Origin: a virus
Taxonomy: Duplodnaviria > Caudoviricetes
Strand: one strand, 5' to 3'
IMG/VR virus record: IMGVR_UViG_3300027819_000006
Length of the DNA: 64,000 nucleotides
Positions 2,983 to 58,769 of the stretch are shown here, piece by piece. The translations under genes and the position numbers were made by a program. Under the pieces are notes generated by a model. It was given only the letters and a program-made list of their open reading frames with translations. It was not told where the DNA came from and ran no database searches. Each line of letters opens with the position of its first letter. Within the stretch, counting starts at the first letter, position 1.

Positions 2983-3893
2983 TTATTTTATTTCTTTTAT
3001 CGACCATCCATTAGTGTTGTTTCGCAATTCTGTTTTTCTATTACATCTGCTTTCTGATATGATGCCCTTGTCTATATGAATTCTTATAGTATTATATGAA
3101 AGTTTATTCTCTTTACAAAATTCTGTTAATCTGCCGTGCACCATATAATAATTATCAGATCTATCTATTAAAACATAAGTTTTTGCATTGCTTTTTACTC
3201 CATTTCTTTTTCTTGTTTCTTGAATTTTGTTTATATGCTCTTTAGTAAGTTTGCATCCAGTTTTATGTTTTTTAGTAGATATAGATATCTTTTCTCTCGT
3301 TTCTAAGCTGTGAGTTCTTCCATAGAAACTATTTCCTTCTCCAGTTTGAGATTTACTAATTTTATCTTTATTTTCTTGTTTATATAGAGGATTGTCTTTT
3401 TTAAATCTTTCAGATGCTTCTTTTTTTCTTTTTTCTATTTCTGAACTATCTTTCATTATTTCTTCATAAGACTTTCCTTTAAAAGCATCAGAAAGTTTTT
3501 TTTTTGTTTCTGGTAGGGTTTCATGTCCCGTAAGAGATTTTGATATTTTTGATTTTATATCGTCAGATCTTTTTATACCAAAATTTACACTATCTTCTCC
3601 AGCGCCCCAGCCATCTCCTCCAGGAGTTATGTTATATCCATCTTTCTGACTATTATAGAATTTAATATAAAACATTTCTTTGTTTTTTATTTCATTTATG
3701 TCATCTGATTCATCTAAAAGCTTTACTTCAAAATTTTCTTTTGAATATTTTTTAATAGCTGAAGCTATAATACTTCTACCCCTTTTACAATCATTGTTGC
3801 AATGTTCTTCAAATCTTTCTTGTATAGTTTTAGAAGTATATCCTATGTAGCATTTATTGTTATACATGTTATTTTATATATTTTATATTTCAT
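2983..3893 (-). mobile_element. Free-standing GIY-YIG homing endonuclease with NUMOD3 repeats; frameshift near the N-terminus
   Basis: KCYIGYT, RFEEH, EMFYI...GYNITPGGDG and HxxETxxKIS repeats. The RBS-preceded ATG at 3893 (MKYKIYKITC) is in a different frame from NNKCYIG. Confidence 0.85.
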
Positions 3894-3962
3894 TTAAAAG
3901 CTCCTTAAAGTTATAATAAATATAACTCTCAAGAGCTTATTGTTTGGTTTATTATAAAAAAA

Positions 3963-21300: not shown

Positions 21301-23630
21301 TGCTGGATCAACTGCATCCATTACGAGATCAGCAAGCATGTCATTGCCAAACAGTTTCTTGGCTACAGCAGCGCCTTTTTGTCTTGCTGCCATTTCATGC
21401 TGTCTTCTAGCTACAGCTTCTTTTGCTTCTGAAACATTATTGCTACTTGTTTTTTTTGCAGGAACTCTTTCTGAAGGTTCATCATCTTCAAGTTCATCAT
21501 TTTCATATAATGATCTGACTTTCTTACTTCTACTGATAACAGATTCATAGACTAAATCTTTGACTGTAGCTTGGACTTCTTCTTTGATAATTTTTTTTAT
21601 TCTTGGTAACAGAAGTTTTGCTACTTCCAATGCTATATTTTTTGATAATTGTTCTGTACTAACTTTCATGTTTATCCTATATTAGTATATCTTCTAATGT
21701 TTTCTTCATATCTTGCAACTTATGAAATATATTTATAGCTTTATTATTGTCATTTTCTGCCATTTCTATCATTTTATCTTTGAATTTAGATTCATTTTCC
21801 ATAATTATCGAATGCAAATCTTCTATAGCTTTTATATATTGCTTTGCAAAATGATTCATTTCAAGCAGTTGTCTAAGTTTCATTATTTATGCTCTATATA
21901 TTTGTAAATGCTGAATCTATAGCTGCCAATAATGACTGCTATACTTCTAATTTTACTACATCTTTATCAGTTATTCTAGAAATAGCTCCTTTATATTTAT
22001 TAATTAGAGAAACTACTGACTTGCTAGTTGCTGCATATAAAGTTTCTAAATCTGTTGGAAAATTATTTTTAAATGTTTCATCTTGCGATTTAGCCAATTC
22101 TGTTGCAAAACTTTGCTGAATCTTTGTACCGGTAGTAACTATTTTTTGTGCAGCAATTTTGACAGCAGATGTACCAACTTTCTGTCCAAGTCTTCCAATA
22201 GCTTTTAAATAATCCATTGGACCTTCTTGAAGCTGATCTTGCAACTCTTTTCTTACAACCTTTCTTAATTCTTGTTCAGTTATAGTTTTCTTCATCTCTT
22301 TTTAGCTCCAATTATTTGCATGTTTTTTGCTTCGTGTTCCATGTCTCTAAGATTCTTGATCAGAATGTTAGAGTTCTCTTTATTTTTCAGCATTAAATTT
22401 GTTATAGTTTTATCTATTCTTCTCTTGCTTGAATCAAAAGTAGTTTTATCACATCTCATAATCATTCTAAAAACTTCTTTTATGTCGTTGTTTATAATGT
22501 TGTAGTTGTTGATGATTATATCTATAAGCTGATCAGTTGTTTTCATGTTTTTCTATAAAGTTTTTCACTGCATAAATATCATTTACGTCACCATCTTCAA
22601 TTGCTGAATTCAGTTCATTTGATAGCTCTCTAGACGTTTCTGATTCTCCGAATTTATTAAATATTAAGTCTATTCCCTGTTTCATCAAGTCTTTCTTCTG
22701 CTCATCTTCATAGTAGTCATTAGGGTCCGCTTTCCAATTAGATATACCAGTTACTTGCAAGTATCCAGATGTATTCCATGTAGAGAAAGTTGGAGTATCT
22801 TCTTTGAGCAAAAGTTTTATGACTTGTCTAAGCAGCATCTTCTTGTTTCTCCAAATCTATATTTATGTATTTCTTAGAAATTGCAATCACTTTCTTCAAG
22901 TCTCTAAAACTCTCTACTCCATCAAAAACCATGTTGCCTCTGTCTACAGGCTTCTTCTCATTCTTAAATTTAATTAGTGCCCATGCATATACATGTTTAT
23001 ATTTTGCTACTTGAAATTCATATCTGATCATAGAATCTTCTGAATACCATTTCCATAACATGATACCAGGATGCTGTTCAGTGTTTAAGTTAGTCATTTT
23101 ACTGCCAGCAGCATGTAGAAGTCTGTATTCTTCTTTTGTGAACATGAGCTGATGGCCAAATTTAGCATCTATAACTTTGAAGTAGAGAATTTGTCCAGAT
23201 AATATAGCTGAAGATAGTTTTAATTCATTGACAAAATACAGGATTTTTAGTTTCATTTCTTTTTTGGCTCCATAATTTCGTACACTGCTACATTTCCTGA
23301 TTTTAATATTTCTGCATCTAGTGGCATTGTTTCTTTTTCTGTGGGATCATTTAAGTCCCAGTATTGAAGCATGGGTTGACCTTTGACATTCACAAACCCT
23401 AGAGCTCTGATTTCATAGTAGTAGCCGCCTTTCTTGGGATTTTGTACAATTAAATAGTTGAGATCTTTGGCAATGTGATAGACAGAGTGGATACGTTTGA
23501 GACGAGATTTGTTGATATGGATGTCGTAGGATGAGATCCACGAAGAAGCGTCGTCATAAGCAATTTCAGATAAATTTGTAGGTAAAAGAGATTTTAAAGT
23601 AGTCATCATTAATTTTATATTATTCTCCAA
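18311..23630 (-). other. Array of small head-module ORFs, most with the shared N-terminal leader
   Basis: 18311-18569, 18574-19101, 19297-19752, 19764-20180, 20182-20838, 20835-21146, 21157-21669, 21677-21883, 21939-22295, 22292-22546, 22533-22838, 22828-23256, 23253-23630. Confidence 0.75.
19098..19286 (-). CDS. rpsU: Ribosomal protein bS21 homolog
   Basis: 62 aa, NESAEGLLKRFKRQM...EIRKSDFYLTKSQKRRLKRRRR, matching the bS21 pattern. Confidence 0.85.
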   Translation of the reverse strand: MSLYIKAYDNESAEGLLKRFKRQMKFEGRMQEIRKSDFYLTKSQKRRLKRRRRKTSDGRELM

Positions 23631-24563
23631 GAAAAATCAACTTCATCTTGCCAGATACGGACAATTCTGTAGCCCAAATCTTTGGCAATATCATTTTTAT
23701 GTTCATCACATTTAATTCTCATTTCTGCATTAGGAGGGTGTTTTCTTCCAGGTTTACAATGCCAATAGACCCCATCAACTTCCACCAATATGTTAAAATC
23801 TGGCAAATAGAAATCATAATATCTGTTCTCTTCGGGGTAGACTGATCTTAAATTGCTTCTGATATCTTATATTGCTGTCAATGAAATGTTGCTCTACTTG
23901 TTTTTCGCATGTAGTTTCTTTGAATATTTTAACATTTTTGCCAAACATTGGATTGCCAGAACCTTTTCGAGCTTCAGACATTCTAGCTATTCTTTCATCT
24001 GTTTCTTTTGTCAATCCATTATTCCACGATTTAGTTTTTCCAGATGCTAAATTTTCTTTTCTGGTTTTTATTGATTTATCTATAGAATTTTTTAATTTGG
24101 GACTAGTTTCGACAGTCAATCCAGTTTGCCAAGGTTTATTACCTTTTGGAAATCTATAATTTATTCCATTTTCATTATTGTATTTTAAAGAACATGGATG
24201 ACCACAAAATTTATGACATTTATTGTTTTTGATATTTGCAACATTCTCAAACCAATTATTACAATTTAAACATTTAGTGTAGCATTCAAACCATCTTTTA
24301 GCTTTACTAGGTTTTCCTCTTAAAGTATAAGATGTTGAGCAACTAGAAGAGCAACACTTACTATAATTTCCGTTAATATGTATAGTATTATCAAACCATT
24401 TATTACAATTCAAGCATTTTGTAGAGCAGTAAAAACTTTTATTTTTTGTGGGATAATATGGAAACATTTCTTTATATTGTTCATTTGTTATCTGGTGTTT
24501 ATCTCTTAAATGACTATTAGTTAGCGATTTAAATTCTTTTCTACATATAGCACATTCTATCAT
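23615..24563 (-). mobile_element. Zn-finger/NUMOD3 + Vsr-like (DUF559) homing-type endonuclease split by a +1 frameshift
   Basis: Frame 0 ends KQFKISLPRREQIL*. The +1 frame from the CCCC run (23834-23837) reads PEENRYYDFYLPDFNILVEVDGVYWH...DEHKNDIAKDLGYRIVRIW. Confidence 0.8.
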
Positions 24564-24572
24564 TTTATTTCT

Positions 24573-24643
24573 CCTGTTAGATTTTTAAGGGAGTCAGATT
24601 AAACAGGTAATCTGATTAAGAGGTAATTAGTCTCAGCTCCCTT
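24573..24643 (-). ncRNA. Structured cis-regulatory RNA (three-way junction + RBS pseudoknot), copy 1
   Basis: AAGGGAG/CTCCCTT stem, ATTA-CCTCT-TAAT and CAGATTA-CCTGTT-TAATCTG; the loop is complementary to AACAGG at the RBS. Confidence 0.7.
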
Positions 24644-24649
24644 GTTTAT

Positions 24650-25264
24650 TTATTTTAAGTTCAGTATTTCATTTAGAATTTCGTCTAGTAAGATTAGACG
24701 ATTTGATTCTGTAAGTATTCTATAATCTTTTGATTCTCTTAAATTCATAAATGCTCCAGATGTTGATGGATTTCCTACTGCATCAAATGCTATTAAGCTT
24801 AAAGATTCATCAACAACATCAATACCATTAGAATTTCTTTTTGTTTCTCCAAGACATCTACTAGATATTCCCAATTTTATGTTTCTTTCTACTAATTTAG
24901 CCAATATATTTCCTTTGGGAGTATCTAATACTTCTAATTCTCCATATAAATTGTCGCCTTCCCAGAATGTCTTTGTAAATAAATGCGAAACATTCTGCAA
25001 TTCTACACAAGAACTAGAGGGATGATCAAGTTCTCCTAAAGCTCGTCTGTCCTTGATCAACTCCTGATATTTCTTATCCTCCCGTTCCAAGATGCTGCGA
25101 GGATATAGACGCCCATTAGCATTTACTTTATTGGCTATTTGAATAATCCCTTCCATCTTTAAAATCCCATCAGAACTAGTTGAAGGGTGTATGTCGCCAT
25201 GTTCAAATAACATGAACTCTCTCAATAGCTTTCTACTATCTGCTGTATTTTTTTTATCTTCCAT
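24650..25264 (-). CDS. Prohead maturation protease (T4 gp21 family)
   Basis: NANGRLYPRSIL, ALGELDHP, LGISSRCLG and FDAVGNPSTSGA. Confidence 0.93.
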   Translation of the reverse strand: MEDKKNTADSRKLLREFMLFEHGDIHPSTSSDGILKMEGIIQIANKVNANGRLYPRSILEREDKKYQELIKDRRALGELDHPSSSCVELQNVSHLFTKTFWEGDNLYGELEVLDTPKGNILAKLVERNIKLGISSRCLGETKRNSNGIDVVDESLSLIAFDAVGNPSTSGAFMNLRESKDYRILTESNRLILLDEILNEILNLK

Positions 25265-39537: not shown

Positions 39538-39882
39538 TGGTGGACCTGGAGAATATCGAAATTCTCGTGTAGTCTATGCTACATAAAAATTGTATTGTAC
39601 ATGCTTTTGCAAATTCTAATTTTTCATTCTGTTATAAAGAATTAGCAAAGTTTATAACAGAATTATTCTTTCTATTTATTAAAAGAAGTGTTCTTATCAG
39701 ATATGAATGATGCTATTCTATTTCCTATCTGCAAAATTTAGATAGCATAGCTGTTTAGCTCTTAAGCAGCTAGTTTGTATTGATTTTTGTCAATTACTAT
39801 TTTGCTGTAAGTTTAAAGAGTTTATAGCAAACTCTGCATGCAATTCTTACTTTACATACCTATCGATTCCAATTTCAGGCCC
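39538..39882 (-). ncRNA. ssrA: tmRNA (complete, 345 nt), tag (A)DKNQYKLAA
   Basis: 5' GGGCCTG pairs with 3' CAGGTCC-ACCA including G3.U70; T-arm GAGAA-TTTCGAT-ATTCTC; tag ORF 39762-39791. Confidence 0.93.
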
Positions 39883-54428: not shown

Positions 54429-54437
54429 TTATCCTCT

Positions 54438-54503
54438 CCAACTAAAGTTAAAGGGCTTCAGCTGAGTTGGCAGCTAATTAAGAGGTAATTAATCTCAAGC
54501 CCT
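54438..54503 (-). ncRNA. Structured cis-regulatory RNA, copy 2
   Basis: AGGGCTT/AAGCCCT stem, ATTA-CCTCT-TAAT and TAGCTG-CCAACT-CAGCTG; the loop is complementary to AGTTGG at the RBS. Confidence 0.7.
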
Positions 54504-54607
54504 GGTTATTATTTTTATTCTTCAGGTTTTGCTAGTTTTTAAATTTTTCTTCCAACCTCTAGTTTTTCTGATAGGAAGTCCAAGCTCTTCTGCTATATTA
54601 TTTTTTT

Positions 54608-54925
54608 TCATACTCTTCTTTCTTCGAATGTTGTGTATTTTGGAAATCTTTTATAATCTTTGTTCATCTTGTAGTCATTATACCACCAACTCTTTATTTC
54701 TGTATTCACTCTATCTAGTCCATGTTGCTCTACATATTCTTTAAATCCAAAATTGTCTTTGAACCCATCATAGCTACTCTTCATATCCATAGATCTAAAT
54801 ACTTCTGCAATCTTTGTGATAGTAGCTTTTCTATCTCTTTTTTGTAGCATAGCAAGAGCTATATAAGCTAGTTCAGAGAAAGAGTTAGTTTTAGTAGATT
54901 CATTTAGAATATTTTTTAATTTCAT
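54608..54925 (-). CDS. Leader-bearing hypothetical protein
   Basis: MKLKNILNES start. Confidence 0.65.
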   Translation of the reverse strand: MKLKNILNESTKTNSFSELAYIALAMLQKRDRKATITKIAEVFRSMDMKSSYDGFKDNFGFKEYVEQHGLDRVNTEIKSWWYNDYKMNKDYKRFPKYTTFEERRV

Positions 54926-57900: not shown

Positions 57901-58769
57901 GCAGTGTTAGTCCAGTTTACAATCATTCCAGAGAACGATGCAGTAGCTGAATTTACAGCACTAGATGAAGCTTGAAAATTTGCTCCACCACTATTAGGTC
58001 CGACTCTTAAAGTTACTACATAATCACTAACAGCTGTCGATGTTGGAATTCTAATATTTGCTGAAAGTGAATAATTTTGATTCGGCACTAAATTTGTAAT
58101 ATTTCTTGCAAATGCCTGTGTTCCGTTTGCATTTGTATCCCATGCAAGTCTCTGAGCAGAAGTACCAGCATGAACAGTTGTAGTTTCAACAGTTGCTGTA
58201 ATTCCACCAGCAGAAACACTCCATCCTGGAGCGACACCATTTATATATCCTCCTTCCATGCTACCACTCAAAACTACATCATTATTATTTCTTCTAATAG
58301 TAGTGAACCACAGCCAGACACTAGAAGCAGTGTTAGACCAAGTTACTATCAATTGCTGAAATGCTGCTGTATTTGAAGCTGTTGCTGAAGCTTGATAATT
58401 TGTACTTCCAGAAGCTGGACCTACTCTAAATACTAAATCATTCAATTGAGATGCAGAAAGAGTCAATATTTCTACCCAGGCTGTTGCTCCATATGTATTA
58501 TTTGTATCTAGTCCGTTTAATTGTTGAGCAAATCCTATAGTTCCGTCTGCTGTAGTTGCCCATGAAATATTTTGAGCAGAAGTGCCCCCATGAGTTACAC
58601 CTGTATTGATTGTTGCAGTAACACCATGACCGGGAGTAGCAGAAATTATCCATCCTGGAGCTATACCATTTGTAGCAATGCCTTCCATATTGCCACTTGC
58701 TACTCTGTCGGCAGTATCTCCTCCGAAAACTAATTGTGGAGCTAATACTACTCTGTCTGTGTTGAACAT
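54972..58769 (-). CDS. Virion fibre/decoration-like protein with seven CBM4/9-like beta-sandwich repeats in a nested arrangement
   Basis: Repeats of NGxFE..NG...GW / AQ.L / Y.VSA / RVGPNSG / W.NTASSVWVW; Thr/Ser/Ala/Gly-rich composition. Confidence 0.75.
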   Translation of the reverse strand: MFNTDRVVLAPQLVFGGDTADRVASGNMEGIATNGIAPGWIISATPGHGVTATINTGVTHGGTSAQNISWATTADGTIGFAQQLNGLDTNNTYGATAWVEILTLSASQLNDLVFRVGPASGSTNYQASATASNTAAFQQLIVTWSNTASSVWLWFTTIRRNNNDVVLSGSMEGGYINGVAPGWSVSAGGITATVETTTVHAGTSAQRLAWDTNANGTQAFARNITNLVPNQNYSLSANIRIPTSTAVSDYVVTLRVGPNSGGANFQASSSAVNSATASFSGMIVNWTNTASNVWVWVTASYTGSTSSMVANGDMEAAYTNGIEAGWIISPNSSLSAQANGTIVHGGVSSQLLAFKTAASGVASFAQNVAGLSTNHNYSATAWVRTNNLSAFKQHNLVFRVGPNSGAGDWQASATASDSSTAAYQALVLSWANTATSVWVWVTDDFRASTTNIISNSGFEGAYNGGFANSWSGSSSGITGSVETTIIGLGVSAQRLAWDTNANETQIFTQNLTGLSSLSDYSVTVSAQLASLNTSGVYDTYIRLGPNSGGKDWTNSMTASNTAALQTLTTTVNSSANSIWMWVGSRYKGNTTNQIANGTFESTFTNGLAASWLKSSNGLIVQRSTAPYSGTQAQELIFSSTADETEALSQNITGLTPWVSYAVSAYINFLASTTALQMHKLMLRVGPNSGAKDFQASTTATVTGAYTNTAFSWTNTATSLWIWVTDTITPETAIVGSGTFENGFTNGIGNGWISTIRNYAVSNIVSNSGFQQGFDASNVASGWVANATITASITSGAGAYEGLSAQVLRYPLNSTSTSAFATNLTGLDVYATYSLSALLRIENLNATNSGNGLAVTLAIKANSADSGSITSNVLSVTGATYTLKTVNWTNTASNVWVTITNANVATACLVYLDAVSATEVTSFSLSGAGTATPVNAGSSSQQIRYVSNVGLSSVIAQQLTSLSTSIDYAVSAFVYVEGPTAGKVVMRVGPNSGGTNWQASTTSTVTAAYEKLSLTWANTASTVWVWLGESTDNSVTAYIDTVTGTFVKVNGPTAQIDSITLAQQSVTGGVILDDFNFVLNGITNTSYVDDISFSLVSPTGGAIVDAVSALMTGSSTGGGIIDDVSAKSLSANIMQSTNTATNFAYINTNAWTMIIPNGTAAPASGTTFILQVNNSNPFDEAKAGHYVHPTNFSFKPTSNASGFNQASASATDFEGNWISVGDITASAYVGNGAYRWIRIYNAGGFTGSASAFRAFVWTPQFGNVHA

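Follow-up and report, generated by a model that had tools for sequence, protein, structure and literature searches.

We found two copies of a compact RNA element in an uncultured T4-like jumbo phage, each of which is predicted to form the 5′ leader of a free-standing nuclease gene of the homing type and, judging from its sequence and from analogy with T4, probably acts in cis to hold translation of that gene down. What we observed directly are the sequence elements of the leaders, the way these covary, the nuclease genes that go with them and the lack of a promoter match. The window, i.e., the whole stretch of 64,000 nucleotides that was analysed, is part of a 271,885-bp ENA contig from a groundwater assembly, and nearly all its genes lie on the minus strand, including those for a prohead protease (Peptidase_S77, 24650-25264) and the major head protein. 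The palindrome TAATTA is found 35 times on each strand of the window, where base composition would predict ~108, and a phage-encoded tmRNA (RF00023, 56.7 bits), uncalled by ARAGORN, is found at 39538-39882 on the minus strand.

In the 5′-to-3′ direction, the two copies display the same order of parts (Table 1): an outer stem (P1, 6-7 bp), 0-2 unpaired nucleotides, a 21-nt core, a variable hairpin (P3, 7-8 bp with a 6-nt loop) and the return strand of P1, followed by an 8-nt linker, a 6-nt loop target running into GGAG, 7 nt and AUG. The core, UGAGAYUAAUUACCUCUUAAU, is invariant but for Y, and in both copies the last two G of the loop target are the first two G of GGAG. The preliminary description of this DNA had claimed an outer stem, an invariant core and a hairpin with a 6-nt loop, the loop being complementary to the 6 nt that begin 8 nt past the outer stem and run into the Shine-Dalgarno (CCUGUU/AACAGG and CCAACU/AGUUGG); all these parts are present in both copies, on the minus strand. 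The linker sequence of copy 2 (54444-54452, minus strand), UUAACUUUA, exactly matches the translational enhancer 'epsilon' in the leader of T7 gene 10, probably by coincidence, since copy 1 has no counterpart.

Table 1. Positions of the leader parts and of the nuclease genes that follow them in the window.
Feature	Position	Strand	Remarks
Copy 1, entire motif	24643..24571	-	
Copy 1 P1 5′ strand, AAGGGAG	24637..24643	-	pairs with CUCCCUU 24587-24593
Copy 1 invariant 21-nt core	24615..24635	-	identical to copy 2 except Y
Copy 1 P2 hairpin in core	GAG 24632-24634, loop ACUAAUUAC 24623-24631, CUC 24620-24622	-	
Copy 1 junction UUAAU in core	24615-24619	-	
Copy 1 P3, 8 bp	24594..24615 (24615..24608 with 24601..24594)	-	6-nt loop CCUGUU 24602-24607
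Copy 1 P1 3′ strand, CUCCCUU	24587..24593	-	
Copy 1 linker, 8 nt	24579-24586	-	
Copy 1 loop target, AACAGG	24573-24578	-	six Watson-Crick pairs with P3 loop, duplex -6.0 kcal/mol
Copy 1 Shine-Dalgarno, GGAG	24571-24574	-	overlaps loop target
Copy 1 AUG	24563	-	9 nt separate the 3′ end of the loop target from AUG
Nuclease gene 1, frameshifted	23615..24563	-	Pfam and PHROGs, low scores; translation shows break
Gene 1, zinc finger and NUMOD3 part	23814-24563	-	
Gene 1, Vsr/DUF559-like end (weak DUF559/MTES_1575), other frame	23615-23806	-	
Copy 2, entire motif	54503..54436	-	
Copy 2 P1 5′ strand, AGGGCU	54498..54503	-	pairs with AGCCCU 54452-54457
Copy 2 invariant 21-nt core	54477..54497	-	P2 15-mer 54482-54496 and junction UUAAU
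Copy 2 P3, 7 bp including one U-G	54458..54477 (54477..54471 with 54464..54458)	-	loop CCAACU 54465-54470
Copy 2 P1 3′ strand, AGCCCU	54452..54457	-	
Copy 2 linker, 8 nt	54444-54451	-	
Copy 2 loop target, AGUUGG	54438-54443	-	complement of P3 loop CCAACU
Copy 2 Shine-Dalgarno, GGAG	54436-54439	-	
Copy 2 AUG	54428	-	
Nuclease gene 2, intact, 299 aa	53529..54428	-	cysteine-rich N-terminus and DUF1064 / PD-(D/E)XK

With up to three mismatches allowed, the 21-mer occurs twice in the window against a shuffle expectation of 0.02. A perfect complement of the 6-nt loop arises in a shuffled initiation region with a probability of 0.007 for copy 1 and 0.010 for copy 2, and the register of the two loop targets is identical. 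Between the copies, compensatory changes affect two pairs of P1, two to three of P3 and three of the loop-target helix, and the three compensating helices of the preliminary description are accordingly P1, P3 and the pseudoknot; the helix inside the core (3-5 bp) is invariant between the copies and therefore uninformative on covariation. Folding energies are just moderately below those of shuffled sequences (z of -2.9 for copy 1 and of -0.4 to -1.5 for copy 2), so that the case rests on covariation and not on stability. When more downstream sequence is included, the minimum-energy structure of copy 2 is an alternative fold in which CCUCU of the core pairs with AGAGG of the RBS, and in this model the competing fold would be an OFF state as well. 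The P3 loop is fully paired in the pseudoknot, with zero spare loop nucleotides, an arrangement that is sterically tight unless the closing pair opens.

The G-U pairs in P3 of copy 2 and in P2 of a related leader from another phage (L221, see below) become C-A mismatches if read on the opposite strand; being usable on one strand alone, they point to a sense-strand RNA. Such pairs, like the covarying flanking stems, would be needless for a DNA-level element, that is, an operator for a dimeric protein on two TAATTA hexamers or an opposite-strand promoter and antisense-RNA unit. The core does contain TAATTA, a second TAATTA lies 11 bp away in copy 2, and the reverse complement of the core reads as a strong RBS, AAGAGGT. 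However, the second hexamer of copy 1 is TAATCA, no promoter-like site is seen on either strand at copy 1, and no start codon follows the plus-strand AAGAGGT, which makes a DNA element very improbable.

The preliminary description placed the downstream nucleases in different families, and the domain assignments agree with this at low scores: gene 1 combines NUMOD3 with a weak Vsr-type end, gene 2 encodes a DUF1064 PD-(D/E)XK protein (Pfam DUF1064 at 27 bits; PHROGs Holliday junction resolvase and endonuclease families), and no significant similarity was found between the two proteins. As gene 1 is frameshifted, its leader may no longer be under selection. The break, at 23806-23814 on the minus strand, could be that of a pseudogene, an assembly error or a recoding site, and a paralogue of gene 1 at L332:18538-19515 is intact. 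Homologues of gene 2 recovered by protein search carry T4-type or interleaved leaders (see below) and not the pseudoknot leader, and protein-based IMG/VR searches for relatives of gene 2 and of the nuclease behind leader L220 yielded nothing useful. Relatives of the prohead protease gene (L116-L127) have no downstream genes in common, and the DNA contigs of four groundwater and sediment runs gave fragments and paralogous matches only, with no cassette-free variant. Between a 105-aa gene and leader copy 2 lies a 29-codon ORF (MKKNNIAEELGLPIRKTRGW...; 54519-54608, minus strand), which resembles the first part of a helix-turn-helix protein and could have been left behind when the nuclease cassette was inserted.

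Two promoter-like motifs recur in the upstream regions of window genes, and the phage probably has two classes of promoter accordingly. The first is a long element, sigma-70-like and with TGTTTATATTTAAC at its end; the other, TATATTTAT(A/T)TTA, precedes structural genes (those at 58769, 33954, 18208, 46403 and 14289). The long promoter-like element (CCTTTACTTTTGAACATAGATTGTTTATATTTAAC...) is nearly identical upstream of the genes starting at 1308, 5754, 7094, 10633, 11180, 35340 and 37149 (minus strand). By motif recognition, neither a sigma-70-like site nor either recurrent motif is found in 24571-24660 or 54436-54530. Given this absence and the position of copy 1, which starts 6 nt past the stop codon of the prohead protease and thus abuts it, the nuclease genes are most likely passengers on the transcripts of the genes upstream, with read-through transcription most likely for both.

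RBS-sequestering structures control I-TevI, I-TevII, I-TevIII, segB and Aeh1 mobE, and seven free-standing endonuclease genes of T4 are promoter-less passengers (PMC2988022). In the T4-type leaders (PMC2988022) and, by prediction, in those of the window, the Shine-Dalgarno of a homing-type nuclease gene of a phage is drawn into a structured leader; both types also have in common a nuclease gene inside a longer transcription unit and, as far as the analogy carries, the purpose of limiting nuclease synthesis. Of the T4-type hallmarks, an RNA structure pairing with the Shine-Dalgarno region is seen here in sequence and covariation, and a middle or late promoter inside or just downstream of the 5′ arm is absent from the window copies. 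In classic T4 cases a shorter transcript from a promoter within the structure relieves the mask, whereas the window leaders have no such promoter and are not predicted to give a shorter transcript that could be translated; the T4 mask is one long hairpin, whereas that of the window leaders would be a 6-bp pseudoknot between loop and RBS flank set in a three-way junction; and a sequence-invariant accessory hairpin is found in the window leaders and not in the T4-type ones. In its predicted working the element is like the T4 RBS-sequestering leaders, yet it lacks their defining promoter feature.

The classic T4 layout, an RBS hairpin with the TATATTTAT motif inside, is displayed by leaders that serve other nuclease genes of this genome and its relatives (L137:9263-9344, window 3868-3960, L337 and L338). 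Still other nuclease genes feature long interleaved X-Y-X′-Y′ leaders (L332:16581-16714 and L336:2897-3000). These resemble the window copies in belonging to the same genome and the same kind of gene and in having a first-hairpin loop sequence complementary to the stretch just 5′ of the Shine-Dalgarno. Unlike the window copies, they have helices of 15-19 bp, too long for coexistence as a compact pseudoknot, and a TATATTTAT-type promoter motif of their own, and they lack P1, P2 and the common core.

We posit that the window leader would fold as a three-way junction of the outer stem P1, the hairpin P2 with its conserved loop AYUAAUUAC and the variable P3, and that this junction would position the P3 loop for its six bases to pair with the six bases ending in the first two G of GGAG. 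From the sequence we infer that this pseudoknot forms on the RNA and lowers translation, by occluding the RBS such that few ribosomes would start. As the pseudoknot covers few Shine-Dalgarno bases (two of the four in GGAG in copies 1 and 2 and none in the third copy described below), we infer occlusion from proximity. Long transcripts from the genes upstream would carry the nuclease genes as passengers. Because the structure contains no promoter, the mask should be in force all the time, damping translation to a trickle of nuclease only. The conserved P2 would probably be an accessory handle for a partner and not the mask itself. The translational OFF switch suggested in the preliminary description is the most economical reading, one that agrees with T4 biology (PMC2988022).

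We scanned ~45 kb of the 272-kb contig beyond the window with a covariance model of the two window copies. A single additional candidate emerged, L332:18445-18537 (21 bits, E ~0.02), which is a probable, not a certain, further copy. It immediately precedes an intact NUMOD3/Vsr gene, distantly paralogous to gene 1, and comprises P1, the junction UUAAU and a 7-bp P3 with the loop CUUGCU, whose complement AGCAAG abuts AGGAG. Its P2 is a different hairpin, without the conserved loop and with a 6-nt palindrome, UGGCCA, which suggests that the pseudoknot design is possible without the conserved hairpin. The three-way junction is not the minimum-energy fold of this copy, RNAfold favouring another. 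Another match of the covariance model, inside a gene in L338, was judged to be due to chance. A MAFFT alignment of the three copies was 1-3 columns off in P1 and the pseudoknot, and swap tests were therefore used in place of pair counting.

At gathering thresholds the tmRNA was the sole Rfam match in the whole window, neither leader copy being matched, and permissive scans of both copies (E up to 10) gave chance-level scores only, the best being freshwater-2 (RF02980) at 20.5 bits against a threshold of 49.9, for copy 1 only and mostly over the RBS. The int-alpA (RF02996) and manA (RF01745) families were unscored on the window copies and L220 at E up to 10; manA and the window leaders have only a capping hairpin in common. 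A 20-nt stretch of the core had no exact match in IMG/VR and eight in JGI metagenomes, all in chance contexts, and matches elsewhere to its 3′ half (TAATTACCTCTTAAT, TTACCTCTTAATYAG) were discarded as reverse complements of ordinary RBSs or other chance matches. A blastn search with the window region and three IMG/VR leaders against 50,697 cultured-phage records gave no match.

The central 15 nt of the core, GAGAYUAAUUACCUC, are found in ~125 IMG/VR phage contigs. Among distinct non-coding contexts, 33 of 44 have at least two extra base pairs flanking GAG/CUC (14% expected, p ~1e-19, with some contigs related), and the 31 coding contexts have no excess of flanking pairs. The excess in non-coding contexts indicates that the 15-mer is a hairpin of an invariant 9-nt loop and three closing pairs on a stem that varies. 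At least nine contigs have, after this P2, another hairpin with a loop complementary to bases that flank the Shine-Dalgarno of the gene downstream, and an outer stem usually encloses both hairpins. Seven independent leaders (L220, L240, L200, L221, L217, L174 and L163) each have their own P3 matched to their own RBS flank (e.g., UUUCCUGA with UCAGGAGG in L220, CCGAUU/AAUCGG in L174 and CCUAUG/CAUAGG in L163); no loop/RBS pairing was seen in L168, L208, L150 and L141, where the 15-mer also stands before an ORF. The next genes encode HNH (L220, L240), NUMOD4/HNH_3/AP2 (L217, L168) or endonuclease VII (L163, L208) proteins, and the same design before these genes in other phages supports the earlier suggestion that the motif travels with unrelated nucleases.

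When loops and initiation regions were swapped among nine curated leaders, 0 of 100,000 permutations reached the observed sum. For ten rule-picked leaders, with all 6-bp hairpins between P2 and the start admitted, the same test gave p = 4e-5, and no off-diagonal match reached 6 nt; with a single automatically chosen P3 the result was weaker (p = 0.03), as the choice had often fallen on a wrong hairpin or start codon. The covariance model of the two window copies scores other family members at just 14-21 bits, driven by the 15-mer.

The IMG/VR leaders share with the window copies the P2 hairpin GAG-AYUAAUUAC-CUC, a variable P3 pairing beside the RBS, a nuclease gene downstream, a YURAU-type junction after P2 and, in most members, an outer P1. 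They differ in that most start at a TATAAT promoter of their own and several have an upstream decoy target for the P3 loop (both present in L220, L240, L200 and L221), whereas the window copies have neither; in that their P2 stem measures 5-10 bp, against 3 bp in the family register for the window copies; and in six further bases (a 5′ U and 3′ UUAAU) that are invariant in the window copies. By these sequence features, the window leaders belong to a family of putative phage nuclease leaders that is absent from Rfam, and we know of no publication on such a family with the 15-nt hairpin. The preliminary description had held that an Rfam family accounting for the motif, or a lack of further covarying homologues, would speak against it; no Rfam family explains the motif and such homologues exist in phage metagenomes, so that neither computational objection applies.

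The invariant core is not specific to nuclease leaders, as its 15-nt centre is also found in manA RNAs, a tRNA-like RNA and tRNA arrays. A subgroup of manA RNAs begins exactly with the hairpin GAG-ACUAAUUAC-CUC (L203:12893-13114, L176:6045-6431 and ~10 related contigs); that of L203 scores 51.5 bits with RF01745, the model starting at the hairpin, where the Rfam consensus has a short loop. A tRNA-like RNA (L192:7080-7250, L140 and L204) combines an acceptor stem of 7 bp (GGAUCGG/CCGAUCC) with a canonical T arm and carries a long insertion; in this RNA, which neither ARAGORN nor Rfam calls, the hairpin sits on a 5-bp stem in the position of the anticodon arm. The hairpin also caps terminator-like structures (L251, L141) and lies beside or between the genes of phage tRNA arrays, its distance to the tRNA ends not being fixed. 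A conserved small RNA of ~200 nt with the hairpin and a rho-independent terminator at its end is found in L242, L187 and L144, with no Rfam match, and one hairpin-carrying contig encodes a type-P5 twister ribozyme (L227:6654-6709; RF02684, 41.7 bits) that is not adjacent to the hairpin. Variants of the loop with one or two mismatches, sought in 3 Mb of phage DNA, amounted to noise only.

These contexts bear on two further explanations of the leaders. A three-way junction, a pseudoknot and an invariant core form a common layout of riboswitches and ribozymes, both of which the preliminary description had brought up. Nothing, however, indicates a small-molecule riboswitch or a self-cleaving class: no known riboswitch class or ribozyme of Rfam matches, no family of either kind scores at E up to 10, the invariant bases are those of a portable hairpin loop that can stand alone as a terminator-like cap and not those of a junction pocket, and the downstream genes have no metabolic logic for a ligand. 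We regard a riboswitch or ribozyme as barely credible. A signal for RNA processing or stability is improbable; here RNase E or a comparable endonuclease would cleave the AU-rich P2 loop, with its RAUUW-type AAUUA, separating the nuclease cistron from the upstream late message and setting its half-life. The RAUUW consensus for RNase E sites was reportedly derived in T4, and tRNA arrays and the 5′ edge of manA RNAs are places of transcript cutting. Against this, the distance from the hairpin to tRNA ends is not fixed, the low sequence specificity of RNase E does not account for 15 invariant bases, and the covarying loop/RBS pairing is left unexplained.

The P2 loop starts with Y-U-N-R and carries the self-complementary UAAUUA in a 2+6+1 arrangement, the same palindrome layout as in the HIV-1 dimerisation loop. 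It would suit a kissing dimer, with an RNase E-type site or a protein site equally open; the protein-binding module of the preliminary description is possible for this conserved hairpin only. The loop also resembles the 16S 790 loop (7/9 bases), as AUUACCUC-UUA does the 16S 3′ tail, both of them likenesses noted post hoc and discarded.

A regulated switch, which we consider unlikely, would use P2 as a sensor: a trans factor, be it a protein, the 30S subunit or another RNA with the same self-complementary loop, would bind the loop and remodel the junction such that the P3 loop releases or grips the RBS. The invariance of nine P2 loop bases and three closing pairs across very different phages, with the rest covarying, is a pattern of specific recognition, the loop has its Y-U-N-R start and palindrome, P2 of copy 3 has the palindrome UGGCCA, and the two P3-loop targets of many IMG/VR leaders, decoy and RBS-proximal, are what a two-state device needs. 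However, no partner was found, neither an RNA complementary to the hairpin within the window nor a protein family common to the hairpin-carrying loci; copy 3 lacks the conserved loop yet retains the pseudoknot, a decoy is absent from the window copies, and a palindrome in an 8-nt loop is expected by chance in an estimated ~5% of cases. We prefer the continuously acting mask, with P2 as its probable accessory handle.

As for the hairpin itself, 15 nt conserved to the base across unrelated phage RNAs imply a common partner. We tentatively propose, with considerable doubt, that GAG-AYUAAUUAC-CUC could be an undescribed portable phage RNA module that caps any helix and works through one specific partner. 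Loop-loop kissing via UAAUUA might then let unrelated phage RNAs pair, or, alternatively, one universal host or phage factor might bind; in the nuclease leaders, such a hairpin would be the input that sets the pseudoknot mask on or off. The portable hairpin is the most novel element of the leaders, and its presence in both manA RNAs and tRNA-array spacers is a lead of its own.

Homing-type nucleases are toxic passengers, and their restraint is known in detail for T4 and a few relatives only. The leader described here would solve the problem in a second, compact way, by a pseudoknot of loop and RBS within a three-way junction and without promoter escape, and the presence of the pseudoknot and the classic T4 solutions in one genome offers a natural comparison. 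The family extends across several kinds of nuclease and several phage lineages, and Rfam has no entry for it, which leaves those genes without an annotated regulator. As a small portable translational damper, the leader may also be of use in the expression of toxic genes.
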